Shown in pieces: positions 8,225-54,178 of a stretch of DNA of 64,000 nucleotides. This stretch comes from a bacterium (GTDB taxonomy: Bacteria; Patescibacteriota; Microgenomatia; UBA1400; UBA12108), in the NCBI GenBank assembly GCA_043827085.1, contig JBDRPO010000022.1:4481-68480 (forward strand). The letters run 5' to 3'. The position numbers and the translations under genes are program-made. The notes below the pieces were generated by a model. It searched no databases. It had not been told where the DNA came from and saw nothing but the letters and a program-made list of their open reading frames with translations. Within the stretch, counting starts at the first letter, position 1, and each line of letters opens with the position of its first letter.

Positions 8225-8231
8225 TGAAGTC

Positions 8232-31103: not shown

Positions 31104-31121
31104 TGGTTTATACTAATTCCT

Positions 31122-31904: not shown

Positions 31905-31908
31905 TCCT

Positions 31909-37526: not shown

Positions 37527-37530
37527 AAAA

Positions 37531-37552
37531 CCCGGTGTACAAGGACACCGGG
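37531..37552. promoter_or_regulatory. Stem-loop immediately after the permease stop
   Basis: cccggtgt-acaagg-acaccggg, a perfect 8-bp stem. It is flanked by AAAAA on the 5' side, so it reads as hairpin+TTTTT on the minus strand. Only a weak U-tract on the plus strand. Confidence 0.4.
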
Positions 37553-37600
37553 TATGTTAAACAAAATAATACTAAAAAATCACTCACAAGTCAAAAAAAG

Positions 37601-37626
37601 GCTCGGCATACCGAAGCATGCCGAGC
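37601..37626. promoter_or_regulatory. Second stem-loop, about 22 nt upstream of the ABC ATPase start
   Basis: gctcggcat-accgaagc-atgccgagc, a 9-bp perfect stem. An A-rich spacer separates the two hairpins. Confidence 0.4.
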
Positions 37627-37648
37627 AGATTAAGGCCAATATACCAGT

Positions 37649-39516: not shown

Positions 39517-40859
39517 AAACTAAAACAGAAAACTGGAATATTGCCTTTGAGATTTCGCCCATACTGGCAGCTTCCGGTTCGTTTGGTGACAAATCTGGGG
39601 TCTATCGTATTAATTACAATTTAATCAAGTATTTAAGTAATTATTTTCAAGATCAAAATCTCCCTCACCAAATTTACCTTTATACCATTAACCCTCCCCT
39701 ACTTTTTAACATGAACATCGATCTTTACGAGCTCTTAAAAAGAGACAATATTCACCTGCTCAAGCTTCCCAACCTCACCAGTCGTTATCTTCACGAATAT
39801 CCAATTTTCAACCACATAGGCATTCGTTTTATCGCTAAGCTTGTGAATAAACTAATCTACAAGAAAATCCTCGAAAAAACTCTCTTTCAGCGCTACCTTA
39901 ATTCGCTCGCTGAAATCTTGCGCACAAATCATGTGGAAGTCGTTCATCACTCCGAAAGTGGTTTCGTTGATTTACAAGGTTTTGCTAACGTGATCCACAT
40001 CAACGATCTTGTCCCCATCAAGTTTCCTTTTTGGCAGCGCAAACTCACTGTCGATATCCACAAACGCAAACTTAGTTTTACCGAAAGCTCGGCACAGGGG
40101 GTAATTTGCATCAGCGAAAGTACCAAACAAGATCTACTAGGATATCTTCCCCGCTTGGCTCAATCAGATCGCCTCGTTAAAGTCATCTTCCCCGGCGCCG
40201 ATAATCACCAAGACACTATCAACATAAAATTGTCCTCGCTCAACCATATTATCGAGAAAAAGGGATATTCTGCGCTCAAAAAAGATAGATATTTCCTTTA
40301 TTTCGGCACGGTCGAGCCCCGCAAAAACATTTCGCTACTAGTAACGGTGTTTAATCACTTATTGACTAGTAAGACTTTTACTGACTTTAAACTTATATTA
40401 GTCGGTGGACGTGGTTGGGGTAAAACTTATGATGATCTACAACGTTTTATCGTTGAAAATTATCCAATCCCCTCAGAAAGCCCCATTATCTTTTTAGATT
40501 TTCTTAGTGACGACTATCTCGCTTGTTTAATCAAAAACGCCCGCGCGGTTGTCTACCCGTCGCTTTATGAGGGGTTTGGGTTACCTGTGGCCGAAAGTAT
40601 GAGACTCGGAACACCCGTCATTACCTCCAATGTATCATCTCTTCCCGAAGTGGCTGACGGTGCCTGCCTAACCGTTGATCCCCTAAATCCAGAAGCACTC
40701 GAATCAGCAATGATCAGACTCTATCAAGAAGATGCTCTGCGTTCTTCCCTTTCACGCAAGGGTCTTAAACAAGCCGCCAAATTTACTTGGGAAAATTGCG
40801 CCAAAGAAACCTATCAATTCTATGTTAGTTTGCTCCATCATTTAGGAGCCAATAAATGA
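39513..40859 (+). CDS. Family 4 glycosyltransferase, tandem paralog 1
   Basis: NIAFEISPILAASGSFGDKSGVYRINYNLIKYLS ... FGTVEPRKN ... EGFGLPVAES. 448 aa. Confidence 0.75.
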   Translation: MKTKTENWNIAFEISPILAASGSFGDKSGVYRINYNLIKYLSNYFQDQNLPHQIYLYTINPPLLFNMNIDLYELLKRDNIHLLKLPNLTSRYLHEYPIFNHIGIRFIAKLVNKLIYKKILEKTLFQRYLNSLAEILRTNHVEVVHHSESGFVDLQGFANVIHINDLVPIKFPFWQRKLTVDIHKRKLSFTESSAQGVICISESTKQDLLGYLPRLAQSDRLVKVIFPGADNHQDTINIKLSSLNHIIEKKGYSALKKDRYFLYFGTVEPRKNISLLVTVFNHLLTSKTFTDFKLILVGGRGWGKTYDDLQRFIVENYPIPSESPIIFLDFLSDDYLACLIKNARAVVYPSLYEGFGLPVAESMRLGTPVITSNVSSLPEVADGACLTVDPLNPEALESAMIRLYQEDALRSSLSRKGLKQAAKFTWENCAKETYQFYVSLLHHLGANK

Positions 40860-42202
40860 AGAAGGTTTGGAATATTGCTTTCGAGATCTCTCCGATTCTG
40901 GCTGCCTCCGGCTCCTTCGGTGATCGCTCAGGTGTTTATCGGATCAACTACAACCTGATCAAATATCTCAGCGAATACTTTGTAGCCGAGAAATTACCTC
41001 ACCAAATCTATGTATATACGTTAAATCCTGCGCTCAACTACAATATCGGTCTCGACCTCAATGCCTTACTGGGTAAAAGCAACATTCACTTTCTCAAAAT
41101 TCCTTATCCTCACGGCAAGTATCTGCAAGAGTATCAGATTTTTGACCACGCCGGTATTCGTTTTATCATCAAGTGGATTGATCAAGTAATCTGGCGACCG
41201 ATTATCGAAAACGTAGTGTTCGCCCGTTATCTTTATCTAATCTCTCAGGAGTTTAAAGCCAAGCAAGTCAAGGTAGTCCATCATTCCGAAAGTGGATTTG
41301 CTTATATCAAAAACGTTTTAAACATTATTCACATCCATGACATGGTTCCCTTTATGTTTCCTTTTTGGCAGCGACCAGTTACGATTGATATTCACCGCCG
41401 CAAAATCAAATTTGCCACCAAAAAGTGTAACGCCGTTATTTGCATCAGCAAACACACCGTCAAAGATTTTGTGGAATACGCCAAGCAATATAAGCTCCCC
41501 TGTCCTCCTCACCGCGTTATATATCTAGGACCGGAACAATTTCCACCTGGTGACAAAAATAATATTAGTGACATCAACAATTCGCTCCGTGCCAGTGGTC
41601 GTAGAATTATTCTCCCCAAAAAGTATTTTCTTTTCTTCGGGACCATCGAACCAAGGAAAAACACTACAATGCTCATCTCAGTTTTTGACAAGCTCAAAAA
41701 AGCTGGCAAACTGGCTCAGTTCGATCTAGTTTTAGTCGGCGGCAAAGGTTGGGGTAAAGTTTATGACAACACCAAAGATTATCTCCAAGAAAACTATCCC
41801 AAATCTATTGCTAGTCCCATTATTTTACTTGACTTCTTGAGCGATGAATATTTACACACGTTAATCACCAATAGTTATGCTGTCGTGTACCCTTCATTTT
41901 ACGAGGGTTTCGGTCTACCGGTCTTAGAAAGCATGCAATACGGTATCCCCGTGATTACCTCTAACAACTCTTCGATCCCTGAAGTAGGAGAGGACGCGTG
42001 TCTCTACATCGACCCCACCAGCCCAGACTCGCTCGAAGGTGCCTTACTTACTCTAGCTTCTTCACCCAAGCTTCACAAGCAACTTGCACTAGCCAGCAAA
42101 CGTCAAGCTGCCAAGTTTAATTGGCAATATACAGCTTTCCAGACTTATCAGTATTATTGTGAACTTCTCAAACCCAAACCTACTTCAAGTATATTTCACT
42201 AA
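40856..42202 (+). CDS. Family 4 glycosyltransferase, tandem paralog 2
   Basis: Same length (448 aa) and near-identical N-terminus (NIAFEISPILAASGSFGDRSGVYRINYNLIKYLS) as the upstream gene. FGTIEPRKN ... EGFGLPVLES. Confidence 0.75.
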   Translation: MKKVWNIAFEISPILAASGSFGDRSGVYRINYNLIKYLSEYFVAEKLPHQIYVYTLNPALNYNIGLDLNALLGKSNIHFLKIPYPHGKYLQEYQIFDHAGIRFIIKWIDQVIWRPIIENVVFARYLYLISQEFKAKQVKVVHHSESGFAYIKNVLNIIHIHDMVPFMFPFWQRPVTIDIHRRKIKFATKKCNAVICISKHTVKDFVEYAKQYKLPCPPHRVIYLGPEQFPPGDKNNISDINNSLRASGRRIILPKKYFLFFGTIEPRKNTTMLISVFDKLKKAGKLAQFDLVLVGGKGWGKVYDNTKDYLQENYPKSIASPIILLDFLSDEYLHTLITNSYAVVYPSFYEGFGLPVLESMQYGIPVITSNNSSIPEVGEDACLYIDPTSPDSLEGALLTLASSPKLHKQLALASKRQAAKFNWQYTAFQTYQYYCELLKPKPTSSIFH

Positions 42203-44405
42203 ATTGTGCCGACAACAAGTTGCTATCTGTGCTAGTCGGATCCACCACCTTAGGCTGCCAAGAATCTGCTGCTATGATATGTATGGTATTTATCCCTGTC
42301 TTAAGCATTGTTCGTGGCACCAACAACTGATTATCTTTCCTAGTTGTCTCCAAATTCACGCTCCCAAGAAATTCGCGGTTCAGATATATCTTAATTAGCT
42401 GAGTTTTATGGTAACTTGCTCCCTCCAAATGGAGAGTCATCTCTTTTTTATCAGCTACTTTTAGTAGAATCTGTGCCGTTGAATTCATCCAGCGGAATCC
42501 CTGGTCACGTCCATACCAATTTCCCGCGATCTGTAGTTCGTCCCCCGGCTCTCCTATTTTTACCGACAGATACTCCTGATCAGTTGGTTCTCTTGACCAC
42601 AGCTCCGCCACAGACTCCTCCTTTATTTTTTTGTATCCCAGTTTAGGTAGTTCTGTCACAATCTGCGTGTACCCTGGCGTGGTGGGGTATAAGATAATAT
42701 ATTTGATATCCAAAAAATCTACCGCTCGCCTAGCCTCATTTTCATTTAATTCCTGCCATTTACTTAAATCAGTCCGGTCCAGTCCTCCATTATTTACTAC
42801 TTGCGGATCGATCATCCTCCCTACGTAGCCGAGCCACGCATTCTGTTGATAGTAAGCAAATTTATAACTGGGTACCCTCCCACTATAGCCAGCCAACATC
42901 GGCTTACCATGAATTAGCTGCCCAGCAATGAAATTTAGCCCTTCAGTATTACCAAAATAAATAAAACCATCTCGCATTGCGCTCGGGATCTCCTGTACCA
43001 CCCCACCACCAGGATCTTTTTTGATAAACTCGTATATTTGATAAGGTAAAGGAGTAGGGGTGGCCAAAGAGTACTTGATTGAATGATCTAGTATCAAGAC
43101 TGCTAGTAATCCCACAAAGACGAGCGCCTTACCTTCTTTTGTCAGTCGCTTTCCCCATGACTGCCAAAGATAACCAATCACAATATACGAAACAAATATG
43201 TACCCAATCGCCAGTCTCCCTGGACTACGAATATTGCCCATAAAGGGTAAGTAGTGAAATAACGCAAAGGGGAGGGGAACCACCAGCTTTATTCCCTCTT
43301 GGAGTTCCTTCGTCCATCTGCCAGCCACGTGGAGGAACGGCCCTAGGGTGAGACTCCACAGCCAAAACCCAGCAAACAACCATGGCGCTACCTGCTGCTT
43401 TGCCTTTCCGAAGTTCTTCTTTCTGATTATGAGATATCCAAAGATTCCCAGAGTGACCAGGATCATGATTCCAGGATAGGTATAGTTTTCAAAAATACCC
43501 TTAGCAAATGCCCAGTGCTGATCTGTCCAAACTGCTATCCCCCGTAAATATCGACTGTAATAGCTAGGGATAAACATCCCAAACAGATCCGTCGAAAATT
43601 GCAGCGCTCCCGCCCAGCCCTCAGTTTTGGGTAAGCCGCTAAACAAAGTCACTTGTCTCAAAGTCACGAGCCATTGGGCAATCATGGCGACAATTGCTAC
43701 TCCTCCCACCACAATCATCCGCCAACTATTCTTAACTACCTCAACCACTTCATCGCGCCGGCAACACCCATAGAATCCACCCAAGAGTCCAGCCGACAGC
43801 AGCAAAGTCACAAAATAGTACAAATTATGGTACAGCGCCATAGCCAGGAAAAAGGCTGTCCCGAGTGCTCCCAACACTCGCTTTCCCAATTTTCCCCTTC
43901 CCGTCATCGTGAGTGCTGAGAGGTAAAACCACGGGAAAACATAGATCGACATATAGGTCAAATGCCCCATCCGGGGCAATAGAAATGTCGTATACGCAAA
44001 CGCCAGTCCCAAAATACCCGCAATACCCACGCCAATTTTCAACTTTCTCAGGAGTAAGTACATCCCCACACTAGCCGCGTAGATGGACAAAGCTACGGTG
44101 ATCGACATGGCTTGGTGCGTTGATAGCCATGGACGTAAGGCAATAAAATACAAAGCGTTGCCGGAATCAGTCGACGCAAACTCTGTCCCAAACGGATAAA
44201 AAGCGCTGCTCCTCCACGCGAAAGGATTTTTCCCAGCCACAATATTTTGGTATGCCTGCTCGATCCCCCACTCAGTGGCAAGTACTTCCCCGTACCTGGC
44301 TTCCACAGTCGAAGTATCAAATTTAAGTTCATGCCAAAATGATTTGTAGTACCACAAGTTCACTATCAAATATATGAGTAACACTATCCAGGTTGATTTT
44401 TTCAT
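42180..44405 (-). CDS. Very large polytopic membrane protein with a C-terminal ~230-aa soluble domain, paralog family D (YfhO-like GT-C candidate)
   Basis: 741 aa. N-terminal TEWGIEQAYQNIVAGKNPFAWRSSAFYPFGTEFASTDSG aligns with TEWIVETGYQKIIHGQNPFAPTTKLFYPFETKIALNDPG of 44405..46036. Last gene of the minus-strand operon. Confidence 0.55.
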   Translation of the reverse strand: MKKSTWIVLLIYLIVNLWYYKSFWHELKFDTSTVEARYGEVLATEWGIEQAYQNIVAGKNPFAWRSSAFYPFGTEFASTDSGNALYFIALRPWLSTHQAMSITVALSIYAASVGMYLLLRKLKIGVGIAGILGLAFAYTTFLLPRMGHLTYMSIYVFPWFYLSALTMTGRGKLGKRVLGALGTAFFLAMALYHNLYYFVTLLLSAGLLGGFYGCCRRDEVVEVVKNSWRMIVVGGVAIVAMIAQWLVTLRQVTLFSGLPKTEGWAGALQFSTDLFGMFIPSYYSRYLRGIAVWTDQHWAFAKGIFENYTYPGIMILVTLGIFGYLIIRKKNFGKAKQQVAPWLFAGFWLWSLTLGPFLHVAGRWTKELQEGIKLVVPLPFALFHYLPFMGNIRSPGRLAIGYIFVSYIVIGYLWQSWGKRLTKEGKALVFVGLLAVLILDHSIKYSLATPTPLPYQIYEFIKKDPGGGVVQEIPSAMRDGFIYFGNTEGLNFIAGQLIHGKPMLAGYSGRVPSYKFAYYQQNAWLGYVGRMIDPQVVNNGGLDRTDLSKWQELNENEARRAVDFLDIKYIILYPTTPGYTQIVTELPKLGYKKIKEESVAELWSREPTDQEYLSVKIGEPGDELQIAGNWYGRDQGFRWMNSTAQILLKVADKKEMTLHLEGASYHKTQLIKIYLNREFLGSVNLETTRKDNQLLVPRTMLKTGINTIHIIAADSWQPKVVDPTSTDSNLLSAQFSEIYLK

Positions 44406-46036
44406 TATTCACGCCTCCACCAGGAATATCCTTGTACTTGTCTCACTTCTTCTGCTCCCACCTCATTTAACATATTCTCTATTTGCTGGGTATATGGTTC
44501 GTTTCGCTTCACTATCACATCAGTAATATTTAACAAATCGAGTTCACTCTTTACTGTTTGAGTCGTCCCTGCATACTCTGTCACGACCGGCTCTTTGGGT
44601 AGCTCAGTAAACCGATTGTAGTTGCCGTGATCGGTAATTTTTAGGATGTGAGATATCCAGCTTAGTTTATCGTAGTAATCAAATACTTGTGTATCCACCC
44701 GCGCCAAATACCCTCCCATGATGCTGCGGTGATGTATGAGCTGTCCGTACATCGGGTTTAGTCCGTATATGAAACCACGATACTCAAAACCATCACGCAG
44801 GGCAAACGGGATCTCCATCACGACTCCACCCTCAGTACGCCCAAGAGTTTCATATATCTCCATCGGCATCTCATCCGCTGCTCTGTAGGGGATACTATAG
44901 TGTTGCGTAAGCAAAAATATCACACCCAAGCCAACCACGATCCACTTCTTTGTTTTCGTTAAAAGTGTCGCGACAGCTATACATGCAAAAAATATCATTG
45001 CAGGGATAAATCTATCTGGTGCGCGCAAACTCTCTAGTCCTGGTAGGCTCCTAAGTAATAAAAAGGGTAGAGGAAAAAACACCTCCACTCCGTCCAGGTT
45101 AATATGCCATCTCCCCAATACTTTCAAAAAAGGCCCCATGGTCAAAATCGCAAACCACATACTACTGATCATTGCCACGCCGATTTTCTTGTACTTTATA
45201 AGCACATAGCCCAAGAGGAGTAGTAATACTACCCCCCAAGTTTTGGGCGAGGCAAGCTCTACCAAATCTTTCGCTAGCTGGACTGCTCCCCCATACCCAA
45301 ACACTCTAGTCGTCTCTCGCCTCATCAACTCATCTCTTACACTCACAAGCCATGGGCTCAGTACTACCACCATTGCTGTCAAGCCAGCCAACATCTGGCG
45401 ATAGTTTACTTTTATATACGCATAACCAAAGAATGCGCCATAAATTACTCCCGCCATCATTATGCTTACGCCATAATAAAAATTCCCGTACCAAAATAGG
45501 GCCGCCACTATCCCAGCTCCCACCCAGTTATTTTTATAAATCAATAAATAAATCCACGGAAAAAGATAAAGACAGAGGTAAGTATAGTGCCCCCGTACTT
45601 CCCCACTTACATAAGGCATGTATGTATACACGAGCGCTAAAAGTATGGCGAGTTCACTTTTCTTGACCAGTGTACTAAGCAGTAAATACATCGCTAGACT
45701 AGAGAGAAAAAGTGAAAGTAGCACCGCTCCCATCATAGCTTGGTGTATCCCTAGCCACGGACGAAACACGGCGTAGGGAACTACCAGCAACATCCCAGGA
45801 TCATTTAATGCGATCTTAGTTTCAAACGGGTAAAACAATTTTGTCGTTGGCGCAAATGGATTCTGACCATGGATGATCTTTTGGTAACCAGTCTCTACGA
45901 TCCACTCAGTGATCCGTCCATCAGTCGTAGATAGATTATTACCAGGCGCATTACTCACTAGCTCTTTAACAAATCTCCAGTTAAAGAAGATATTGATACC
46001 AAGCAACACCAAAACCATCCACCAAACTCTTTTCAT
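44405..46036 (-). CDS. Large polytopic membrane protein, paralog family D
   Basis: 543 aa. Same N-terminal block as 42180..44405. Its stop overlaps the start of the downstream gene by 1 nt (TAATG). Confidence 0.55.
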   Translation of the reverse strand: MKRVWWMVLVLLGINIFFNWRFVKELVSNAPGNNLSTTDGRITEWIVETGYQKIIHGQNPFAPTTKLFYPFETKIALNDPGMLLVVPYAVFRPWLGIHQAMMGAVLLSLFLSSLAMYLLLSTLVKKSELAILLALVYTYMPYVSGEVRGHYTYLCLYLFPWIYLLIYKNNWVGAGIVAALFWYGNFYYGVSIMMAGVIYGAFFGYAYIKVNYRQMLAGLTAMVVVLSPWLVSVRDELMRRETTRVFGYGGAVQLAKDLVELASPKTWGVVLLLLLGYVLIKYKKIGVAMISSMWFAILTMGPFLKVLGRWHINLDGVEVFFPLPFLLLRSLPGLESLRAPDRFIPAMIFFACIAVATLLTKTKKWIVVGLGVIFLLTQHYSIPYRAADEMPMEIYETLGRTEGGVVMEIPFALRDGFEYRGFIYGLNPMYGQLIHHRSIMGGYLARVDTQVFDYYDKLSWISHILKITDHGNYNRFTELPKEPVVTEYAGTTQTVKSELDLLNITDVIVKRNEPYTQQIENMLNEVGAEEVRQVQGYSWWRRE

Positions 46037-46203
46037 GACTCTATTATAGCTTAAGACTCATGCTACAATTTACTTTGATATGTTGAAATCTTGGCTGATC
46101 TTTACTCTGGTAATGCTTGTCGCTTTCAGTCTTATCTACCGTGTTAATACCCATTGGGACCGTGTAAGAATAGTCCCGACCAGCATGTTTGCTCAGGAGT
46201 CAC

Positions 46204-48099
46204 CTATTCCCCACTAATTCTCTTGTACACAAACATCATCGGAGACTCCTCCACAAATTCAAATTTATCTCTCACTTGATCATAAATAGTGATGAGTGTA
46301 TGTTCGCCGATATTTGGTGTGTTTCTATACTCCTCAGCTTGGCGCAGCACCCTTTTGTCCACAAACAAGTATTTAGGCTCCCTGCGGTATAGCTCGATCA
46401 CATCTTTTAGTTCCTGTTTGGTGTAGAGCGTAGCATGTAGATAGTAGTAGTCAGCTAGATTTACTCGCTCGGCCTGCATTAAAAGCACATGGTCAAAGTA
46501 GCCGATGATAGCCACCCGCTCCTTGTTGGGGGTATATTTTTTGATCGCGTCCGCGCTCTCCATGAGCTCTGTGATAGGTATAGTAGGTACCGCTGTGTTT
46601 TCGACCGCTATCAACCTATTCTTTGGCGGGTAATTAAAGTTGGGGTCATACTTCATTAGTCGAAAGTCACTTAGTCGGTGTTTTTCTAGCTTTACTCCCC
46701 ACTGCACAAATTTAGTAAGGGGAAGTGCAAAAATTGCGATCGAGATCAAAACTACGAGCTGTTTGCCATAAGACCGCGTCCACACCGCGCGCACCAAATA
46801 CTGATATAAATAAATCAAAATTATGATCGCTGGGATGCTGACCGCCGCCAAGTCACTTAAGTTTTGCTTGCCCAGATAGTAGCGGAATATACCATAACCG
46901 TAAATAGATAACATAGTCAATACCGGCAAATCTCTTAGTGGTAGTCCTCCCTTGACGTATTTTCGCACCATGACACTCAAGATCACTATGCCGTATATCG
47001 CTATCGGCCAATACGCATACCAGGTTGTTAGTGCCAGGCCTTGACGCTGCAAAAACCCAGCGTTAAATAGTTGAGCGTAGTAATAGTATTGACTCCAGTC
47101 AGGCCATTTAGAGGCTACAATATATGTGTACAAGCTATAGATCGCCATGATAGTACCGGTGTAGCCAACAACCTGTATGCCTTGTCGCACCCCCAGCTTC
47201 CCTCTCAAGTAGGCTATGGTAAAGAGTGCTGCCCAGTAGCTCAAAATCAGTGGGATTCCCGATTCAAGGTTCCACAGTACCCCTACTGCCAGGCTTAGTT
47301 GGAGTAGTCTCCAAGCCCACTTTTTTTGTGTCCTACTCCACCACAAAAAAAGCAAAATCGCAGGCATTGCAGGCAAAAATCTCCACACACTCCCCCCTGG
47401 CCACAAAAAGAACTCCGAGGGAAACAGAGTCGGGAAGACTCCATAAAAATGCACACTAGTCGTCACGACAATCCCGAGTAACGCCAGGGTTTTCGACTTG
47501 GTCAAAACTCGCATAATCAAATACACGGCCATGTACTCGCAGACCCCCATAATCATAGAGATCAAATGCACGTTTGGATGCGAGAAGTACAGTCCAGCTT
47601 TAAAGATCCATGAAGTCAGGAAGATATTCAAAAATCCGTACTGGGCTTTGGTATCTACAAGAAGAATTTTTCCATTTAAAACATCATTGAGTGGTCCAGT
47701 AATAAAATTGAGATGATGATAGTTGTAAAAAAATTGGTAAAAAGCGTTATAACTAAAATTCACCACTAAACCAATAATTATCAAAGTAAAGAAACCTATC
47801 TCTTTCGCTCCTGGCCAGTTGATTTTGCCAGGAGTTTTTGGCCATAGTTTACGTATAGGCTCCAATTTCTCGCGCAAGATTAAATGAAAACCCCTCCACA
47901 ATCCATAAGTTACTGTGGGGATATAGAGTAGCGCTACAGGCCAAAAGTATTTATACGGAGTAAGTGTAACTGTCCGACTAGCTACCCACGGCAAAAATGT
48001 GTCGAGCGTTACTTGGTCAACTATAGGGTAAGGGTAGTTTACCGCCAAATACCAAAAACTCAGTCCCGCCAAGCTTAGTGCCACCAGAAATTTATTCAA
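46204..48099 (-). CDS. Large polytopic membrane protein with a C-terminal soluble domain, unknown family
   Basis: 631 aa. About 12 TM helices, then a ~170-aa hydrophilic tail (NYPPKNRLIAVENTAVP...). Overlaps the upstream gene by 8 nt. Confidence 0.5.
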   Translation of the reverse strand: MNKFLVALSLAGLSFWYLAVNYPYPIVDQVTLDTFLPWVASRTVTLTPYKYFWPVALLYIPTVTYGLWRGFHLILREKLEPIRKLWPKTPGKINWPGAKEIGFFTLIIIGLVVNFSYNAFYQFFYNYHHLNFITGPLNDVLNGKILLVDTKAQYGFLNIFLTSWIFKAGLYFSHPNVHLISMIMGVCEYMAVYLIMRVLTKSKTLALLGIVVTTSVHFYGVFPTLFPSEFFLWPGGSVWRFLPAMPAILLFLWWSRTQKKWAWRLLQLSLAVGVLWNLESGIPLILSYWAALFTIAYLRGKLGVRQGIQVVGYTGTIMAIYSLYTYIVASKWPDWSQYYYYAQLFNAGFLQRQGLALTTWYAYWPIAIYGIVILSVMVRKYVKGGLPLRDLPVLTMLSIYGYGIFRYYLGKQNLSDLAAVSIPAIIILIYLYQYLVRAVWTRSYGKQLVVLISIAIFALPLTKFVQWGVKLEKHRLSDFRLMKYDPNFNYPPKNRLIAVENTAVPTIPITELMESADAIKKYTPNKERVAIIGYFDHVLLMQAERVNLADYYYLHATLYTKQELKDVIELYRREPKYLFVDKRVLRQAEEYRNTPNIGEHTLITIYDQVRDKFEFVEESPMMFVYKRISGE

Positions 48100-50257
48100 A
48101 GCTAATCCTCCGAAAGTCGACTGCTAACTCGCGCTTGTCGCCTGAGGCTGCGTCTGGATTTTCAACTTTGTCAAACTCAAAGCTTACTAGATGCTTACCT
48201 AGCTGTACCTTTGGTAGCTCGATTGTATATTCACTCCATTCTCTACTCAAAGCTAACTTTCTGCATAACTCATCGTTTACAAATACCCGCACTGTCTGTC
48301 CGTCGATAAAGGATGTAGCTGTTATCTTGAGTTGAGTTTTCGTCATATTTTTCTCAGTTACCCACCATATACTTGCTGTCTTTTCATTGGCCCAGCGGTG
48401 ATCGTTCTCAGGGGTACTCCAGCCATCAATCAAAATCGTATCGTCATACTGAGTTTTCCCAAACTCTATCGTTTGCAACTGCTTGGAGTTCTTTAGTAAA
48501 CAATCATCACTCAAACAGCGTCTCCCCAACTTATAAAATCCATTTTCCCACACAACCTGCTCAAACAACAATTTTGGTGGTCGATACCACAGCTCTTTAG
48601 ATACCAAAATTAAAGCATCTTCTGGCACTATGCCATTTTTAAATTCCTGCAAATTTGCACTAGATACTAGCTCTTTTTGCGGGTAAAGAAAATATTCAGT
48701 CCATATTTGTCGCCAGTAATACCCCATCCCCTCCACCACTTCACTCAAATAAATTGGCTCTGTAATACTTGGATTATTTGCCAGTTCAGACAGAGACATT
48801 AGCGACCTGTCCACTGTAATGTGGTTATATGTAAAACGTCTTATCAGTCTCCCCCCCGACCACAAAGATGCCACAATGAGTATCACCCCCACTCCCAACC
48901 CAAGGTAGCGTTTTTTGTCAGCAATGTCTATCCAGCCAGCCACGAACCACGGGAGTACCACAGGGAGTACGTACGTCACCACTCTGTTATAGGCAAAAAA
49001 GTTGTTATTCCCCCAGGTTGTCCAAACTATCATCGGCAAATACAATCCTACCATTACCATAATCATCCCTCGCCCGCTTGCCTTCCACATTCCTCTGGCC
49101 AAGATGACCAAAATCAATCCCGATAAACTCCAGGCCACTATCCATGGCAGGGCAGGGGAAGTATGAATATCCCATAGCCCCAGTAACTCTACGGGGTTAG
49201 CAAAGGGATTAATTTTACGGAAAATATCCCAGCCTATTGGACCATTCACTAGTTGTGCTTGCTGGATATCAAACATGATCGAGTGGATGGCTGCCACACC
49301 ACCCAAAAGTAGAGTAGTAGTAGCGACCCGCCACATCGTTTGCCAGTTACGGCTGATGAGTAAGTAGATCCCAAACGGAGCCAGCAAAAAGATAGAACCT
49401 TCATGGTACGAGTAAAATACACTTGCCACAATGATTCCAATCAGAAAGTCATTTCTCTCTGATTTTTTGCTAAAAACATGGATCCAAAATAACAGCTGCA
49501 GTCCCCAGAAAAATACTTGTCCTGCGAAATTATGGTAGAGCATATACAACAAATTCGCATTTGCTGCCGTCAATCCGGCAGTGAGGATCAGTCCGAGCTT
49601 ACTCTCTTTCCCAGTCATAACGACTAGGAGTACATAAACCAGCGGGATCATCCAGGCGAATAGTAAGACTTGGAATAGGTAGGTGAATTGATACCCCCTG
49701 AGTCCCGTTACCTCCAATAGGTATCCCATCGTGATCGGTGTGCCCCACCTATACCCAATTCGAATTAGATTACTGATTCCGTTGTAGTCATACTTTCCTT
49801 CATGACCATCCACCAAAAGACGAGAAAATATTGTGCCCTTTTGCAAGTATTCAGGTACCGTAGCATAGATTATGGCGTCATTATTCCCCAGCGACACAGT
49901 GGTGAGGATTTTGTCATTTCTCCACAGTGGAGCCAAATTTACCAAAATCGAGACTCCAACCACACTCGCCAGGATCACCTCTCTCCATCCGATCGTCACT
50001 CTGATTTTGTCGTAGAACCAGGTTTTGAGGCTTAGGGTCGCAAGTACCAAGGTCAGGGGGATAGTGCTGTAGGCAATAGGTATCCCCATCAAGCTTAAAA
50101 TGGTGAGACCTACACTCACCCCCACGATTGTGTACCAAGGGGCCAGCCAAAAGGCAAAAAAGGCAATTTTCTTAGGCGTTAAATAGCTAGCGATACCATA
50201 ACCGAGGAAGTACATTAAAATTGTAATACCTGCTGGATACAAAAATATTTCTTTCAT
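48092..50257 (-). CDS. Very large polytopic membrane protein with a C-terminal ~250-aa soluble domain, paralog family E
   Basis: 721 aa. TTVSLGNNDAIIYATVPEYL block shared with TTLSLGNLDPVTYASGGEFL of 50254..51933. Confidence 0.5.
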   Translation of the reverse strand: MKEIFLYPAGITILMYFLGYGIASYLTPKKIAFFAFWLAPWYTIVGVSVGLTILSLMGIPIAYSTIPLTLVLATLSLKTWFYDKIRVTIGWREVILASVVGVSILVNLAPLWRNDKILTTVSLGNNDAIIYATVPEYLQKGTIFSRLLVDGHEGKYDYNGISNLIRIGYRWGTPITMGYLLEVTGLRGYQFTYLFQVLLFAWMIPLVYVLLVVMTGKESKLGLILTAGLTAANANLLYMLYHNFAGQVFFWGLQLLFWIHVFSKKSERNDFLIGIIVASVFYSYHEGSIFLLAPFGIYLLISRNWQTMWRVATTTLLLGGVAAIHSIMFDIQQAQLVNGPIGWDIFRKINPFANPVELLGLWDIHTSPALPWIVAWSLSGLILVILARGMWKASGRGMIMVMVGLYLPMIVWTTWGNNNFFAYNRVVTYVLPVVLPWFVAGWIDIADKKRYLGLGVGVILIVASLWSGGRLIRRFTYNHITVDRSLMSLSELANNPSITEPIYLSEVVEGMGYYWRQIWTEYFLYPQKELVSSANLQEFKNGIVPEDALILVSKELWYRPPKLLFEQVVWENGFYKLGRRCLSDDCLLKNSKQLQTIEFGKTQYDDTILIDGWSTPENDHRWANEKTASIWWVTEKNMTKTQLKITATSFIDGQTVRVFVNDELCRKLALSREWSEYTIELPKVQLGKHLVSFEFDKVENPDAASGDKRELAVDFRRISFE

Positions 50258-51933
50258 TGCAAGTCCTTTGCAAGCATCAATTTATCCACGTTGATTAACT
50301 CATACCCGTTCTCAGGCGTATTATGCAAAGTCACAAACGGTCCATCTCCCCGCCCAGTGAGCGGTAAATTGGCTCGTGTATAAAAAGGAACCTCGCGCAA
50401 AAAATGCTCTTCCCACACCCGCTGCCACAAATCATATCCTTCTGTCATCACATCTGTATTGTAAATGGGACTTTCCTGTATGGGCAGATTCTGCAATTCT
50501 GCTATCTCACGTCCTACCAATCGGTGGTGGTTAAAGTATTGGATCATAGTGCGGTAAGACGACCGTAAGGTCAAAACTCCCAGTATCACCATTACCACGA
50601 TGCTAATCTTGTAACTCTTGATCTGCGCAAGTCCAATAGATACAAGTACCACAAGTAGAAACATCCCATAGCCTAACACACGGTTATAGACAAAATAATT
50701 ACTAATTATTAAACGATAAAAAACCAAAAAAACACCAAAAACTAAAATGTATGCACCGATCAATTTTTTCTGCTTGATTTTTGCAAATCCCCATACAGCG
50801 ATGAGTAATAGAGGCAAGCTCACAATCAGGTCAACAATTAGTGGCAAATCCCGAGAATAATTCAGGTTATATATCCCGAGCAGTTCCCATAGTGACCCAA
50901 AGCGGATCCTCTCCCAGCCGATAAAAGTTGTGTTCGTGGTCACTTTGATTAAGCGAATTATTTGGTTTACACTATTTACCATTGTGATCGGAGTTAGTGC
51001 TAAAGCGTAAGAGATACTTATCCAGATATTTTTATATTGAGTAAGCAATAGGGGCAACAGCAACAGCATCATGCCATCTGGATATACCGAGGAGGTGGTA
51101 GCAATAGTTACTCCCATCCACCACGCTTTGCCAGGAGAGTCACCAAGAGCCAAAAGAATTGTCAAAACTATCAGTCCCCCGTAGACAAACTGTGGCATAA
51201 AAGCGTGGAACTGCCAGTACATGAGAGTAGAGTTAAGTCCAAAAAGTAGCGTAGTACCTACTAGCAAGCGTATATCATCGCGTCCCAGTAGCTTTTTGCT
51301 GAGTAAGTAAATTAGCGGCAGGGTCAGCGCTGTCAAAACTGCCAGCAATATCGTATAAACCTGGTATACCTGCTGATGCAAAATCACTGCAAAAAAACTT
51401 AAAGTGAGTGGCACTCCGTACCGAAAACCGTAGTGGAGTATGTCTGCGATAGACCAAGTATATGGGTGCTGCATATCTATTGCACTACCTTGGATCAGGC
51501 TATACTCCCGCAAAAACTCTCCACCACTTGCGTAAGTCACAGGATCTAGATTACCCAGGGACAAGGTGGTGGGGTAGCCAACCTTACCCCACATTGGGTA
51601 AAGATAGAAAACTATCACGCCGGTGACAAAGAGCAGCAAGCGCCAGTCGCTCATTGACCATTTAGAGCTCCACCCATACTTAATTAGCGCAAAAATATTA
51701 ATCAGGCTTGCGCAAAATAGTACGGCGTAGCTCCCGTACTTCATTGGGATATTTGCCAAACTCAAAGCACCAGATAGCAAGACAACTAAGCAAACTCCCC
51801 ACCAAGGCACGCTCCATTTCTCCTTGCGTAGCGGTGTAAGTCTATTTACCCCCCATCCCAGAAACATTAATAACCCCAAAATACCAAGTGTCAATAAACT
51901 AATTTGCAGCATAACTATGATTATACTATCCAT
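50254..51933 (-). CDS. Large polytopic membrane protein, paralog family E. First gene of the minus-strand operon.
   Basis: 559 aa. Shared block as above. An AT-rich divergent promoter region (51934-51979) separates it from the plus-strand PP-loop gene. Confidence 0.5.
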   Translation of the reverse strand: MDSIIIVMLQISLLTLGILGLLMFLGWGVNRLTPLRKEKWSVPWWGVCLVVLLSGALSLANIPMKYGSYAVLFCASLINIFALIKYGWSSKWSMSDWRLLLFVTGVIVFYLYPMWGKVGYPTTLSLGNLDPVTYASGGEFLREYSLIQGSAIDMQHPYTWSIADILHYGFRYGVPLTLSFFAVILHQQVYQVYTILLAVLTALTLPLIYLLSKKLLGRDDIRLLVGTTLLFGLNSTLMYWQFHAFMPQFVYGGLIVLTILLALGDSPGKAWWMGVTIATTSSVYPDGMMLLLLPLLLTQYKNIWISISYALALTPITMVNSVNQIIRLIKVTTNTTFIGWERIRFGSLWELLGIYNLNYSRDLPLIVDLIVSLPLLLIAVWGFAKIKQKKLIGAYILVFGVFLVFYRLIISNYFVYNRVLGYGMFLLVVLVSIGLAQIKSYKISIVVMVILGVLTLRSSYRTMIQYFNHHRLVGREIAELQNLPIQESPIYNTDVMTEGYDLWQRVWEEHFLREVPFYTRANLPLTGRGDGPFVTLHNTPENGYELINVDKLMLAKDLQ

Positions 51934-51979: not shown

Positions 51980-52657
51980 ATGATAAGTAAACAAAAAGTT
52001 AAAGAAGCTCAAAAAATTATTCGTCAAGCTCGCTCTAAATGGGATGATGACAAGATAGCGGTAGCTTGGACTGGCGGCAAAGACTCTACCGTCATCCTGA
52101 GTCTAATCCGTGAAACTTTTAACGGCAAAATCCCCTTTAGAGTCATTTTCAACGACTCGACTATCGAATTTCCCGAAGTATACGAGTTTATCAAAAAAAC
52201 TACTAAGGATTGGAATCTAAAACTCATTACGATTCCTCATTTGCCCGAAGATCTCCAAGCTTATCAAGACGCTGTCTCCCCGGAAGACAAAATGGAAATC
52301 ATGCGGATCGCCAAAATTAACGCGATCAATTATGCGATCACCGAATACAAGCTTCAAGCGTTCATGTCAGGTATCCGCGCCGACGAACACGAATCGCGCA
52401 GCGAAGAAACTCACTTTTCACCACGCACTTCCCACATGCGTGTCCACCCAATTCTCAATTTTACCCTTACTGATATTTGGGACTACATCAAAGAATTTGA
52501 AGTTCCCTATGTCAAGCTCTACGACCAAGGCTATAAATCGCTTGGAGAAGCACCTTTTACGAGTCCTGTCTCAGATCCCAATGCTCCCGAACGAGCGGGA
52601 AGGGAGGCCACCAAAGAAAAAACCATGAAACGTCTGCGTGATCTCGGTTATTGGTAA
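51980..52657 (+). CDS. PAPS-reductase-fold PP-loop protein (PF01507-like) lacking the redox cysteines
   Basis: WTGGKDSTV PP-loop, RADEHESR, ILNFTLTDIWDYI and YDQGYKSLGEAPFTSPV align with the CysH/CysD family. The family's QGY.SIGC.PCT cysteines are replaced here (C to E, C to F), and there is no C-terminal Cys pair. Confidence 0.7.
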   Translation: MISKQKVKEAQKIIRQARSKWDDDKIAVAWTGGKDSTVILSLIRETFNGKIPFRVIFNDSTIEFPEVYEFIKKTTKDWNLKLITIPHLPEDLQAYQDAVSPEDKMEIMRIAKINAINYAITEYKLQAFMSGIRADEHESRSEETHFSPRTSHMRVHPILNFTLTDIWDYIKEFEVPYVKLYDQGYKSLGEAPFTSPVSDPNAPERAGREATKEKTMKRLRDLGYW

Positions 52658-52666
52658 TACTGAGTT

Positions 52667-54178
52667 ATGTACAAAAATCTTGTCATTATCTCCATCGATT
52701 CTCTCCGTGCCGATGCCACCAACTTTTCTCACCAGGCAATTCATGGTCGTGCAGAACCACGACTTAAAACTCCCAACCTAGACAAGCTCGCAGGTCAAGG
52801 CTCATACATAGAAAAAGCTTATTCCACCAATACCTATACCACCGCTGCTCACGCTTCCCTCTTTACCGGCCGTTACCCTTACCAACATCAAGTCCGGGCC
52901 TTCCTTGATTTCCACAGCACTTTAAATCCCACAACACCTACCCTTGCTGAGATTCTGCACAATCAAGGTTTTCAGACATTTTTTTATTCCGATGTCCCAG
53001 AATTATTTTCCTCAAACGACATTTGGCGCGGTTTTAGAGTCAAAACTAAAAATAATACTAACTGGTTCTTTAACTCACTAGAAGAAGCCAAGAAAGACCG
53101 GAATTTTATCTTCCTCCACCTTTTTGATGTTCACGAACCATACTTATATATCGAAGATCAAAACCACAAACCCAATGCCAATGACGATTACTACGACTCA
53201 GTGACAACCCTGCAGAAGAAACTGGGATATAAATCCAAATTGAATCCCAAGAAAAATCCCCACGATTTCTGGCAAGAAATTCGTCAACATTTTCGCGCGG
53301 AGCATCTCAAAGAGTATCCTTATCTTTACCCCCTGTATCTTGCGGGAGTAAATTACTTTGATAAATACCGACTGCCATATTTTTTGAATCAATTTGACCA
53401 TCTGGGCTACACTAGTGACAATACTCTCTTCATTTTCCTGAGTGATCATGGCGAAGGACAAACCACTTTCGATACCAATAATATTATTAAATTTAATCAC
53501 GGGGGTGACATTACCGAAGACGTTCTCAGAATATTTCTGACTATTTCTGAGTCAGGTATTAATCGCAAGCTCATGTCCATCGCCGATCTCTCTAATCTAG
53601 CATTGTCTTTACTAGGAGTCCCATACCCCAAACCAATTGAATATTCACTCAGCCGCGCCGTTATTCCTCCGCATCATCTTTACGCCGAATCACACTACAA
53701 TATTGTCGGCGACAAACTGGCTCATGGATTAACTGATCAAGGTACTCTCGCGCAAATTACCTCACACGTCTTGGGTAGCCGGGCATTTATCACCGATTCT
53801 CACAAATATATTCTTCATGGTGAGCCGGAATACCTCGCCTCTTCCCATTCAACCGAACCTGCCAGCGTCGTGATTGATCGCTTATTCCAGTCTATCTTCT
53901 ATCGATTTTCCGATTCGACTTCCAAGAAATCATTACTCGGCGCCCATGCTCATTCTCCACTTGAACCCGATGCCCTTGCGTACAAACTTCTGATTTCTCC
54001 CGAAAAAACTCTCAAGCCTTTTACCGAAAGCTTTGAAACTACCGACCTAGCTGATCATCCAATTGACGACACGTCCTGGACAATCCAAGCCAAATTTCAT
54101 TGGCTATCTGCTCTCACAACCCACGTCCTCCATCCCCGCCGTCATTATCGTTTTTCCAAACTAATCAATAATTACTGA
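52667..54178 (+). CDS. Alkaline-phosphatase-superfamily phosphodiesterase/pyrophosphatase (ENPP type I phosphodiesterase-like), with a ~150-aa C-terminal extension
   Basis: Metal site ISIDSLRAD. Thr nucleophile block TNTYTTAAHASLFTGRYPYQHQ matches the ENPP pattern T-x3-H-x-S-x2-TG-x-YP-x2-H. HLFDVHEPY and FLSDHGEG second-metal motifs. Not a Cys/Ser-type sulfatase, because the CxPxR motif is absent. Confidence 0.65.
   Translation: MYKNLVIISIDSLRADATNFSHQAIHGRAEPRLKTPNLDKLAGQGSYIEKAYSTNTYTTAAHASLFTGRYPYQHQVRAFLDFHSTLNPTTPTLAEILHNQGFQTFFYSDVPELFSSNDIWRGFRVKTKNNTNWFFNSLEEAKKDRNFIFLHLFDVHEPYLYIEDQNHKPNANDDYYDSVTTLQKKLGYKSKLNPKKNPHDFWQEIRQHFRAEHLKEYPYLYPLYLAGVNYFDKYRLPYFLNQFDHLGYTSDNTLFIFLSDHGEGQTTFDTNNIIKFNHGGDITEDVLRIFLTISESGINRKLMSIADLSNLALSLLGVPYPKPIEYSLSRAVIPPHHLYAESHYNIVGDKLAHGLTDQGTLAQITSHVLGSRAFITDSHKYILHGEPEYLASSHSTEPASVVIDRLFQSIFYRFSDSTSKKSLLGAHAHSPLEPDALAYKLLISPEKTLKPFTESFETTDLADHPIDDTSWTIQAKFHWLSALTTHVLHPRRHYRFSKLINNY

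Follow-up and report, generated by a model that had tools for sequence, protein, structure and literature searches.

A minimal CysD-like protein paired with a threonine-type sulfatase-family enzyme points to PAPS-independent sulfation of cell-surface glycans

The gene pair described here lies in a 64-kb window (the whole stretch of DNA that was analysed, from whose first letter all positions are counted) and consists of what is, judged by its sequence, a minimal and cysteine-free CysD, followed after 9 nt (52658-52666) by an alkaline-phosphatase (AP)-superfamily enzyme, which Pfam, profile and fold comparisons place in the sulfatase family. The pair points to PAPS-independent sulfation of cell-surface glycans, a route that is undescribed. 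In the model that we favour, with a confidence just short of an even chance, the PP-loop enzyme would make APS and the AP enzyme would pass the sulfate on to a lipid-linked glycan. A previous sequence-only reading of this DNA had already recognised the two ORFs (51980-52657 and 52667-54178) as a real pair, which we confirm, with a spacer one nucleotide longer than it is, and had proposed adenylyl chemistry for the PP-loop protein, which appears to be the sensible reading. The literature searched held no description of the PP-loop/AP pair, and nothing relevant on PEP-CTERM links either. The features of the window that bear on the pair are collected in Table 1.

Table 1. Position of the PP-loop/AP pair, its predicted functional motifs and the upstream genes within the window
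Feature	Position	Strand	Remark
ABC-2 glycan exporter (Wzm 36753-37526, Wzt 37649-38401)	36753..38401	+	PF01061, PF00005
Three GT4 glycosyltransferases after the exporter	38398..42202	+	PF00534/PF13692
Five large polytopic membrane proteins (two pairs of paralogues and a fifth)	42180..51933	-	5-9 hydrophobic segments each
PP-loop protein, minimal cysteine-free CysD-like predicted adenylyltransferase	51980..52657	+	225 aa; ORF and PF01507
PP-loop T31-G-G-K-D-S36, predicted binding of the ATP alpha/beta-phosphates	52070..52087	+	invariant in alignments A1/A5
R133-A-D-E136 motif	52376..52387	+	R133, D135 and E136 invariant in the PP-loop family
C-terminal tail ERAGR...KEKTMKRLRDLGYW	52589..52654	+	aligns with E. 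coli CysD tail ERQGR...SMELKKRQGYF
Thr-type sulfatase-family AP-superfamily protein, proposed transferase	52667..54178	+	503 aa, soluble
I-D11-S-L-R14-A-D16, first strand with predicted metal-binding Asp	52694..52714	+	D11, R14 and D16 invariant (alignment A2)
T58-T-A-A-H62, predicted nucleophile motif at the sulfatase C-x-P-x-R position	52838..52852	+	T58 and H62 invariant
D154-V-H156-E-P-Y motif	53126..53143	+	D154 and H156 invariant
D260-H261-G-E ... H278, predicted metal-ligand pair and downstream His	53444..53500	+	alignment A2
C-terminal helical extension, homologous to a region that carries DUF4214 in orthologues	53819..54175	+	aligned with PF13946-carrying orthologues

The PP-loop protein matches the Pfam family PAPS_reduct (PF01507) with an E-value of 1.2e-38, contains no cysteine at all and retains an intact PP-loop. 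Its top NCBIfam match is the CysD subfamily (1.6e-33), in each case under the cut-off, with 116.3 bits against 195 for NF003587 and 83.5 against 396.6 bits for TIGR02039, the latter match being split into two stretches. The cut-offs of the CysH-type (P)APS reductase families are missed as well (NF002537, 97.7 against 154 bits; TIGR00434, 91.2 against 165.1; TIGR02055, 70.4 against 235.3). Because a PDB search with the 51-residue tail was uninformative, returning only CysH-type chains and chance matches, the E. coli proteins were aligned directly, resulting in 30% identity to CysD and 23% to CysH, while the short CysDs of the archaeal and Omnitrophota type are 35-41% identical over the full length. 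Among the PP-loop orthologues, identity is 53-79%, and within the Patescibacteria 60-79%.

Three CysD motifs, namely an intact PP-loop of the SxGKDS type, RxDE..R and a C-terminal tail of the form M..L+..GY[FWM], are present on the common PAPS_reduct fold. The sequence-only reading was right in calling the loop an intact ATP-binding PP-loop, although the sequence reads TGGKDS and not SGGKDS; it matches SIGKDS of CysD, and its counterpart in E. coli CysH is a degenerate SFGIQA. Likewise, R133-A-D-E136 aligns with RRDE of CysD, where CysH has RREQ, and the ECGLH tail with the catalytic cysteine of CysH is replaced by a CysD-type M..LR.LGY tail that also aligns with the tail of the short CysDs (MQKLRSLGYM). 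The protein differs from E. coli CysD in the absence of both insertions, and from the short CysDs in the absence of their CC...CxxC. With the CysH-type PAPS/APS reductases it shares the Pfam family, the overall fold and the conserved phosphosulfate-binding basic residues (K112, R133, ER.GR), but it lacks their Fe-S cysteines. With zero cysteines and a CysD-type tail, a CysH-type reductase is out, as the sequence-only reading had concluded from the missing reductase cysteines. In a neighbour-joining tree with CysH as outgroup, built without support values, the mini-CysD clade to which the protein belongs groups as the sister of the CysD clade. Human FAD synthase, with its PAPS-reductase-like domain, provides the best PDB match (1.1e-16; the match to 8rom at this value falls in two stretches), and CysD is found at 3e-16.

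Its partner scores 79.2 bits with Sulfatase (PF00884, 4.3e-22, cut-off 25) and more weakly with Phosphodiest (PF01663, 8.6e-10, 39.2 bits), of whose 342 profile positions only 1-175 are matched. Profile matches reach 8e-29, the nearest in profile and in fold being S1 sulfatases and phosphonate monoester hydrolases, and with the AF2 model (pLDDT 86.4) S1 sulfatases are the top matches in Foldseek (E 6e-18, TM about 0.5). The Pfam matches and the invariant Thr58 uphold the previous assignment to the AP superfamily with a Thr nucleophile, whereas the ENPP-type label gives way to the sulfatase family, ENPPs being absent from the top 50 folds and the top 60 profile matches; what looks ENPP/EptA-like is confined to the T-x-x-x-H motif and the His-rich ligands. 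For the Phosphodiest-type partners of other loci, no PDB relatives were detectable by sequence. Neither a signal peptide nor a TM segment was found in the 503 residues, the chain opening directly with strand 1, in line with the cytoplasmic location previously proposed; some AP partners at other loci carry N-terminal TM segments.

The active site departs from that of the S1 formylglycine sulfatases, with which the partner shares the N-terminal Asp and the nucleophile position. In a HMMER alignment T58 falls on the Cys/Ser (formylglycine) residue of the sulfatase 9s7x/9s85, and in relatives the motif takes the form T-x-P-x-H. Since Thr58 and His62 stand in place of Cys/Ser and Arg of CxPxR, no formylglycine can form. 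The D154-V-H156 position is presumably that of the H-x-P motif of sulfatases and EptA. Further downstream, D260, H261 and G262 are invariant and E263 and H278 nearly invariant across the partner family, with D-H instead of D-N and His instead of the sulfate-binding Lys, so that the His residues, as we take it, occupy the Asn and Lys positions of Ca-sulfatases; the Lys/His pair that follows strand 4 in sulfatases is missing from the alignment. The C-terminal extension, previously regarded as unique, is common to the orthologues, with a DUF4214 match in several of them, and sets the partner apart from S1 sulfatases together with its cytoplasmic location. The extension of the window copy has no direct Pfam match; its helices 399-448 are modelled confidently by AF2, the final 28 residues are not.

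The pairing of PP-loop and AP genes is far beyond chance. Counting 43 species-level loci with a PP-loop orthologue of at least 39% identity, the AP gene is adjacent or fused in 35 and located within 1.5 kb in 3 more, while it is lacking in 3 and 2 end at a contig edge; it is thus kept beside the PP-loop gene in 38 of the 41 assessable loci. Furthermore, fusions with the AP domain N-terminal and the PP-loop domain C-terminal account for about 30 of the best 150 family representatives (50%-identity) and carry both sulfatase-type and Phosphodiest-type AP domains, PF01663 enzymes being the partners of many PP-loop orthologues. Conserved adjacency and repeated fusion together indicate that the two proteins act together. 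No inference is drawn on whether the active sites face each other, because the AF2 model of one natural fusion (P0141) has a pTM of 0.62 and a disordered linker (449-503). The pair was found in many uncultured bacteria and archaea, including Patescibacteria and DPANN archaea, so that the co-occurrence across genomes, which the sequence-only reading had proposed to check, is borne out and its absence from orthologous islands, which that reading had named as an argument against itself, is clearly not what is seen.

The connection to sulfate activation comes from related clades, where the same AP partners recur in true CysD-CysN operons and take the place of an APS kinase. The short-CysD operon has the form [TauE/TSUP anion transporter]-CysD-CysN-like GTPase-AP enzyme, and among the 31 metagenome short-CysD loci that have 2.5 kb or more of downstream sequence, the GTPase is encoded in 31, the AP enzyme in 26 and an APS kinase in none. 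An APS kinase was found neither in the window nor at about 90 mini-CysD loci, nor at 80 metagenome short-CysD loci, which are not independent lineages because they are 62-87% identical to one query. The CysN-like G domain occurs as a separate gene (31/31 loci) or fused (P0276), and one locus (L095) encodes a G-domain-CysD fusion with two genes downstream of it, one Thr-type sulfatase-like and one Phosphodiest. Over 600 aa, the 573-aa AP of L095 shares 33-34% identity with a ~700-aa AP beside Patescibacterial mini-CysDs, and the 258-aa AP after CysD-CysN in L097 is 50-57% identical to APs beside GTPase-less mini-CysDs (L046/L053/L055/L056/L082). L096, the only related locus of its kind, combines its CysD-like gene with an APS kinase and a faint match to a sulfotransferase and has no AP gene, which suggests that the AP enzymes stand in for APS kinase plus sulfotransferase. 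A full-length CysD alignment with cysN nearby, raised by the sequence-only reading as a counter-argument, turned out to exist in its first half: CysD aligns full-length, and the window encodes no cysN, nor do the 8 kb around some 90 related loci (L001-L091). Because the AP partners recur in true CysD-CysN operons, this alignment sharpens the finding and does not refute it.

Glycan assembly is the context in every neighbourhood examined, never defence. As previously noted for the membrane glycosyltransferases, the window surrounds the pair with PMT/PMT_2/GT87/PTPS_related genes, together with GT2 and GT4 glycosyltransferases, a Wzx-type flippase and the ABC-2 exporter, and related loci encode GT2, GT4, ABC-2, Wzx, Wzy_C, Bac_transf and WecG. 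In orthologous loci, the genes directly upstream of the pair are usually those of the ABC-2 exporter, and GT4 genes come after the pair (order Wzm-Wzt-PP-loop-AP-GT in L002/L004/L005/L006), ABC genes being located at most 7 kb from the pair in 11-13 of 47 loci. A PrsK-PP-loop-AP-PrsR arrangement occurs in Nitrospirota or Desulfobacterota. In the window genome the five membrane-protein genes (paralogous pairs 42180/44405 and 48092/50254), for which no Pfam match was obtained, separate the exporter/GT4 block from the pair. Several ORFs neighbouring the pair have no Pfam match. Methyltransferase, PLP decarboxylase, SHMT and radical-SAM genes adjoin some orthologues, and an FkbM methyltransferase is fused to some AP partners. 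AbiE toxin-antitoxin genes occur near some loci, inserted between or beside the pair. Neighbourhood clustering of the orthologous loci yielded no conserved third gene as a candidate transferase, and neither TauE, CysN, APS kinase nor the sulfotransferase-like protein of L096 was found near loci of the mini-CysD clade.

According to the sulfation model, the PP-loop enzyme would move AMP from ATP to sulfate, forming APS and PPi without the CysN GTPase, as its homology to CysD suggests. The sulfatase-family enzyme would then take the sulfuryl group from APS with release of AMP, possibly via a covalent Thr58-O-sulfate intermediate that, unlike the formylglycine adduct, could not collapse by elimination, and would, at the cytoplasmic face, transfer it to a hydroxyl group of a lipid-linked glycan, which the DUF4214-like C-terminal domain may hold; here the genomic context and the anatomy of the active site are our guides. 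Finally, the ABC-2 transporter would export the decorated glycan, a step proposed because orthologous loci carry this transporter. Tight coupling, by the 9-nt spacing here and by fusion elsewhere, would pull the unfavourable APS formation forward. We favour this model because of the CysD-likeness, the obligatory pairing, the CysD-CysN-AP operons, the shared AP partners, L096 and the glycan context, and because the nearest profile and fold relatives of the partner are sulfate-ester enzymes. By extension, Thr-type AP-superfamily enzymes, both sulfatase-like and ENPP-like, may represent an unrecognised class of sulfotransferases that would draw sulfate straight from the APS of a fused or adjacent CysD-type enzyme, which we put forward tentatively and with less than even confidence. 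Several points count against sulfation. On sequence grounds, the conserved Thr, D-x-H, D-H and His of the partner appear closer to those of Zn-dependent phosphoryl transferases (ENPP, EptA/MCR-1) than to the residues of Ca/Lys sulfatases, and the native chemistry of PF01663 enzymes is attack on phosphorus. APS synthesis without CysN is thermodynamically very unfavourable, and the model is weakened since no sulfur genes (TauE-like transporter, sulfate permease or others) were found in the window or at mini-CysD loci. Moreover, the literature searched offers no biochemical precedent for an APS-dependent AP-superfamily sulfotransferase.

These points lead to an alternative in which the ester is a phosphate. 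The PP-loop enzyme would adenylylate a compound X-P, e.g., a phospho-alcohol, to ADP-X in the manner of eukaryotic FMN adenylyltransferase, and the AP enzyme would transfer phospho-X to the glycan in the manner of EptA, LtaS or GacH, with phospho-X on Thr58, AMP as leaving group and a soluble cytoplasmic donor. The phosphoethanolamine and glycerophosphate transferases within the sulfatase Pfam family (EptA/MCR-1, LtaS, GacH) and the ENPPs have a Thr nucleophile, a motif of the T-x-x-x-H or H-x-P-Y type, a D-H pair and, further downstream, a His, and they decorate envelope glycans via a covalent Thr intermediate. The partner appears to resemble them in its conserved residues (Thr58, D-H, His), a Thr nucleophile with His-rich ligands being typical of phosphoryl transfer, and differs in lacking a TM segment, since those enzymes are membrane-anchored, extracytoplasmic and use phospholipid donors; none of them is among its 60 best profile matches. 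The human FAD synthase match on a par with CysD and the bona fide PF01663 enzymes frequent among the AP partners fit this route, and the methyltransferase, PLP decarboxylase, SHMT and radical-SAM neighbours and the FkbM fusions could build a head group. However, the same AP partners accompany G-protein-coupled CysD-CysN and a TauE-type anion transporter, and GTP coupling is not known outside sulfate activation; the tail and motifs of the PP-loop protein appear to fit CysD better than FAD synthase, and no kinase supplying X-P is seen as a conserved neighbour. We consider this route unlikely, with an appreciable chance nonetheless. That the PP-loop protein is simply a housekeeping FAD synthase of the eukaryotic type (FMN adenylyltransferase), located in a glycan island by chance, would explain its top PDB match and its very high conservation in Patescibacteria, but is very improbable in view of the near-universal AP adjacency or fusion, the glycan clusters across bacteria and archaea, and again the CysD-type tail.

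Another reading accepts sulfate activation by the PP-loop enzyme and leaves the AP enzyme as a mere hydrolase, which might release sulfate from an organosulfate taken up by the cell, or drive the reaction by removing PPi or a nucleotide, with the true sulfotransferase being an unrecognised protein elsewhere. It agrees with the CysD kinship and the CysD-CysN-AP operons, most AP-superfamily enzymes are hydrolases, and the Pfam-less neighbouring ORFs could hide a transferase. Yet a Thr nucleophile in a sulfatase scaffold would make a poor sulfate-ester hydrolase by the known mechanism, the repeated fusion to the PP-loop domain and the DUF4214 and methyltransferase fusions or associations fit a substrate-handling transferase better, and clustering did not bring up that transferase, so that we regard this explanation as rather improbable. 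A role in DNA modification or phage defence, on the model of BREX type 4 (BrxP + PglZ) or Dnd/Ssp, receives next to no credence from us. It could call on a generic BrxP match of the PP-loop protein (1.3e-15), weak DndC/SspD matches in PADLOC and the nearby AbiE genes; the BrxP match, however, spans the PAPS-reductase part only (116-317 of 779), DndC reaches 2e-5, the partner has no match to PglZ or anything else in PADLOC, no neighbourhood contains BREX or Dnd genes, and the AbiE genes are non-conserved insertions. The defence reading is therefore set aside for lack of a PglZ match and for the glycan-gene neighbourhoods, and glycan decoration, which the sequence-only reading had raised with 'sulfo-' among its options, is by far the better fit.

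Compared with the classical PAPS route (CysDN or Sat, CysC, PAPS sulfotransferase), the sulfation model would share the first step, and L096 resembles the classical arrangement, whereas at the mini-CysD and short-CysD loci the AP enzyme takes the place of the APS kinase. To our knowledge, all established biological O-sulfation proceeds via PAPS-dependent sulfotransferases or aryl-sulfate transferases, and the reviews searched list no APS-dependent or AP-superfamily sulfotransferase. A genetic precedent for cytoplasmic-side sulfation of a lipid-linked glycan exists in archaeal glycosylation, where the Agl7 step of Haloferax volcanii sulfates a dolichol-phosphate-bound hexose before flipping (PMC3892788). 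The protein family of Agl7 is not stated in the literature searched. It might be sulfatase-like.

In conclusion, if the ester proves to be a phosphate, the partner would be a soluble, nucleotide-donor-dependent cousin of EptA and LtaS coupled to a PP-loop activating enzyme, which would be new in itself. If the sulfation model is true, a sulfatase scaffold with threonine in place of formylglycine would have become a transferase and the reaction of APS kinase would be bypassed, providing candidate enzymes for those sulfated archaeal and bacterial glycans that lack a known sulfating enzyme. Patescibacteria and DPANN archaea have tiny genomes and invest heavily in surface glycans, and the model would assign a function to a gene pair that is widespread and strongly conserved in both. 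It would imply PAPS-free sulfated surface glycans in Patescibacteria, DPANN archaea, Nitrospirota, Desulfobacterota and others.

On its sequence, the PP-loop protein (225 aa) is a minimal, cysteine-free relative of CysD. It matches PF01507 (E 1.2e-38), contains no cysteine and retains an intact TGGKDS loop. Aligned with CysD and CysH of E. coli, it shares three features with CysD, namely the PP-loop, an RxDE..R motif and the C-terminal tail (ERAGR..KEKTMKRLRDLGYW versus ERQGR..SMELKKRQGYF in CysD), whereas in CysH the loop is degenerate and the tail, RECGLHEG, carries a cysteine; the window protein is 30% identical to CysD and 23% to CysH. Short 266-aa CysDs of archaea and Omnitrophota, ending in MQKLRSLGYM, are 35-41% identical to it across its entire length, and a neighbor-joining tree without support values grouped the window clade with the CysD clade as its sister and left CysH outside both. 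Because of these motifs, the full-length identity and the tree placement we regard it as a CysD relative and reject a disabled reductase; a reductase of any kind is unlikely. FAD synthase is unlikely too. Among the PDB matches, human FAD synthase and CysD are in a near tie at the top, followed by CysH-type reductases. The adenylyl chemistry proposed by the sequence-only reading is supported. The protein nevertheless differs from CysD in that it stays under the curated cut-off of the CysD model, its top curated-family match, lacks both insertions of the E. coli enzyme and has no CysN partnership.

In the short 266-aa CysDs a CC...CxxC pattern is invariant (79/80 loci, L098-L177; alignment A6). 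It resembles the APS reductase Fe-S motif, is absent from E. coli CysD and the window protein, and is kept by the fusion protein P0141 and a Desulfovibrio-type subfamily. Elsewhere in the PP-loop family, P0364 (674 aa) contains a LAGLIDADG-domain intein, and P0278 (517 aa) and P0307 (503 aa) are tandem PAPS_reduct duplications.

The alkaline phosphatase (AP)-superfamily partner had been labelled ENPP-type, which did not hold: Pfam scored Sulfatase (4.3e-22) above Phosphodiest (8.6e-10), and the solved folds nearest to its confident AF2 model (pLDDT 86.4; 28 homologues as input) were S1 sulfatases and phosphonate monoester hydrolases, both also retrieved by a partner-family profile search. Although in the sulfatase Pfam family, it lacks the defining formylglycine motif of S1 sulfatases, with Thr58 at the Cys/Ser and His62 at the Arg position; D11, R14, D16, D154, H156, D260, H261, G262, E263 and H278 are further (nearly) invariant residues. 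Such a His-rich, Thr-nucleophile pattern is a trait of ENPP and EptA/MCR-1 rather than of Ca/Lys sulfatases, and the likeness of the partner to EptA, LtaS and ENPP lies in the catalytic residues and does not extend to topology or overall similarity. Neither a signal peptide nor a membrane segment was detected in it. Its C-terminal helical region aligns with an orthologue stretch scoring as DUF4214, while the region itself had no DUF4214 score in Pfam; O-antigen binding by a DUF4214 domain was proposed from modelling in a 2026 preprint.

Stand-alone relatives of the partner (P0143, P0147, P0150, P0153, P0156 and P0172; alignment A2), several of which start with a hydrophobic leader, end in '..RLRALGY[VLF]..', near-identical to the PP-loop protein's C-terminal RLRDLGYW and to CysD ends and absent from paired AP proteins. 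The resemblance could be coincidental or mark a shared docking tail.

The reported arrangement of a cysteine-less PP-loop gene beside a Thr-nucleophile AP gene in a glycan cluster was recovered as two ORFs 9 nt apart, the gap containing no terminator-like site, and since opposite-strand genes occupy both flanks they form a two-gene unit. Both proteins occur identically in one NCBI MAG and one Logan assembly, and named homologues come from Roizmanbacteria, Gottesmanbacteria and Microgenomates. The entire 64-kb window, from a Microgenomates-type Patescibacterium, is a glycan island. Its genes include those for GDP-mannose dehydratase, an epimerase, an ABC-2 exporter, a Wzx-type flippase and numerous GT2 and GT4 enzymes. 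About 22 products are polytopic membrane proteins of 5-12 hydrophobic segments each, many of them in paralogous pairs; several match the GT-C families PMT, PMT_2, GT87, PTPS_related or Mannosyl_trans2, and others have no Pfam match. This density of membrane glycosyltransferase-like genes is unusually high for a small genome. A DegT/EryC1-type aminotransferase and a thiamine-diphosphate enzyme, encoded a short way downstream of the pair, suggest that an unusual amino sugar or branched sugar is made. Pfam and homologue searches matched no window ORF to APS kinase, CysN or sulfotransferase families. At the window end, a 204-aa ORF closely resembles the soluble C-terminal domain of a 714-aa membrane protein (common motif …LILSNW[ED]YLLYL…NFRHL…); the domain, which has no Pfam match, is C-terminal in one further protein.

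Coordinates of features in the window
Feature	Position	Strand	Remark
PP-loop protein ORF	51980-52657	+	225 aa
RLRDLGYW end of PP-loop protein	52625-52654		
Partner ORF	52667-54178	+	503 aa
ABC-2 exporter	36753-38401		
Polytopic membrane genes (examples)	4679-6256, 8058-9725, 9722-11302, 16623-18068, 22222-25189		
Polytopic membrane genes (further examples)	29493-33522, 42180-51933, 54165-57027		
Polytopic membrane gene	58318-60462	+	714 aa
DegT/EryC1-type aminotransferase	57024-58274	-	
Thiamine-diphosphate enzyme	61419-63278	-	619 aa
ORF at window end	63312-63926	-	204 aa
Further gene with the C-terminal domain	46204-48099		

A locus survey with one genome per species, ORF calling and family-profile searches yielded 80 loci, 43 of which encode a PP-loop protein at least 39% identical to that of the window. 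Among these 43, the AP gene is adjacent or fused in 35; in three more an inserted AbiE toxin-antitoxin pair or methyltransferase separates it from the PP-loop gene, still within 1.5 kb; it is missing in another three, and the last two loci reach a contig edge. Close orthologous loci keep the order Wzm-Wzt-PP-loop-AP-GT4; more distant loci show a divergent or duplicated AP gene, or a methyltransferase gene between it and the PP-loop gene. Moreover, a search among 1.84 billion representatives returned 154 PP-loop proteins under 1e-30, and among the best 150 about 30 join an N-terminal AP domain of either type, sulfatase or PF01663 (the type of all non-sulfatase AP genes surveyed), to a C-terminal PP-loop domain, which together with the adjacency bears out a functional pair. 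Another fusion, P0141 from a Gram-negative-type genome, adjoins a triple GT4 and an FkbM methyltransferase. Carriers are mainly Patescibacteria, with Altiarchaeales, Aenigmatarchaeota, Nitrospiraceae, Desulfobacteraceae, Syntrophobacterales and Desulfobaccia. Within 7 kb we found GT2 (16/47 loci), ABC-2 genes (11-13/47), GT4 (12/47) and, more rarely, epimerase and Bac_transf (8/47 each) and WecG/TagA and Wzy_C (5/47 each). This recurrence agrees with the glycan decoration that the sequence-only reading had weighed against defence; despite the occasional AbiE insertion, a defence role is unlikely.

AbiEi/AbiEii-type genes lie between or beside the two genes in Patescibacterial loci L016 (924-2307), L018 (4628-5985), L007, L020 and L022. 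In L007/L008 (9449-16436) and L009 (1-7991 and 10993-12396), radical-SAM/SPASM, B12-radical-SAM, PLP decarboxylase, SHMT-like and methyltransferase genes adjoin the pair, which hints at extra tailoring of the substituent or sugar. In Nitrospirota, a more distant PP-loop subfamily of about 270 aa is encoded between PrsK and PrsR, regulators of PEP-CTERM, and is followed by a PF01663 gene. In L060, L063, L065, L072, L075, L079 and L080 (Nitrospirota/Thermodesulfovibrionia), a ~274-aa PP-loop protein and a 443-aa PF01663 enzyme lie between these two PEP-CTERM/exosortase regulators, a histidine kinase and a sigma-54 regulator, with an exosortase gene nearby.

Relatives with extra domains gave the decisive lead on what the pair handles. 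P0276 fuses an EF-Tu-type G domain to a CysD-like domain, and P0362 and P0365 are APS-kinase-CysD fusions. In locus L095, the gene 4 bp after the G-domain fusion P0397 encodes a membrane-anchored, sulfatase-like protein of the Thr type (WTFPAHNSMFTG), and a PF01663 gene comes next. The P0397 relative P0403, in L094, is part of a Wzx/Wzy cluster that also encodes three methyltransferases and a mini AP-like protein of 299 aa. Locus L097 has the operon TauE-CysD (short CysD P0413)-CysN-like GTPase-PF01663 (258 aa), near a flippase, three sulfatase-family genes and AglB. A metagenome scan with short CysDs as queries gave 80 phylogenetically narrow loci, of which 31 had at least 2.5 kb downstream and 49 at least 1 kb upstream; the GTPase was present in 31/31, an AP gene within 3.5 kb in 26/31, APS kinase in 0/31 and TauE in 19/49. 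The 258-aa AP protein of L097 is 50-57% identical to those beside GTPase-less mini-CysDs (the window type) in five loci, and the 573-aa one of L095 shares 33-34% identity across 600 residues with the ~700-aa AP proteins beside Patescibacterial mini-CysDs, so that, by sequence, AP partners are common to GTPase-linked and GTPase-less PP-loop enzymes. The single related locus with an APS kinase and a faint sulfotransferase match had no AP gene.

To our knowledge, CysN-type GTP coupling serves sulfate activation only, and the CysD-CysN-AP operons therefore almost certainly make APS; because their constant companion is an AP enzyme, not APS kinase, the simplest reading is that this enzyme consumes APS. 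The mini-CysD would take the place of CysDN with no need for a G protein, close coupling to the partner pulling its reaction forward, and the AP enzyme would move sulfate from APS onto a lipid-linked glycan at the cytoplasmic face before export, to which its sulfatase ancestry, Thr nucleophile and glycan context point. We give this model somewhat less than an even chance: the active site looks phosphoryl- more than sulfuryl-oriented, many AP partners are ENPP-like, no sulfate transporter is visible in the mini-CysD clade, the supporting metagenome loci are phylogenetically narrow, and the literature searched offered no precedent. Its main rival, with equal two-step logic but a phosphate monoester activated as ADP-X, appears improbable, and slightly more so an AP enzyme acting as a helper hydrolase.

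Neither protein is named by a curated NCBIfam model, and the literature searched yielded no description of the pair. What emerges is a widespread and undescribed enzyme pair, for which APS-dependent sulfation is proposed as a specific, testable and unusual chemistry.
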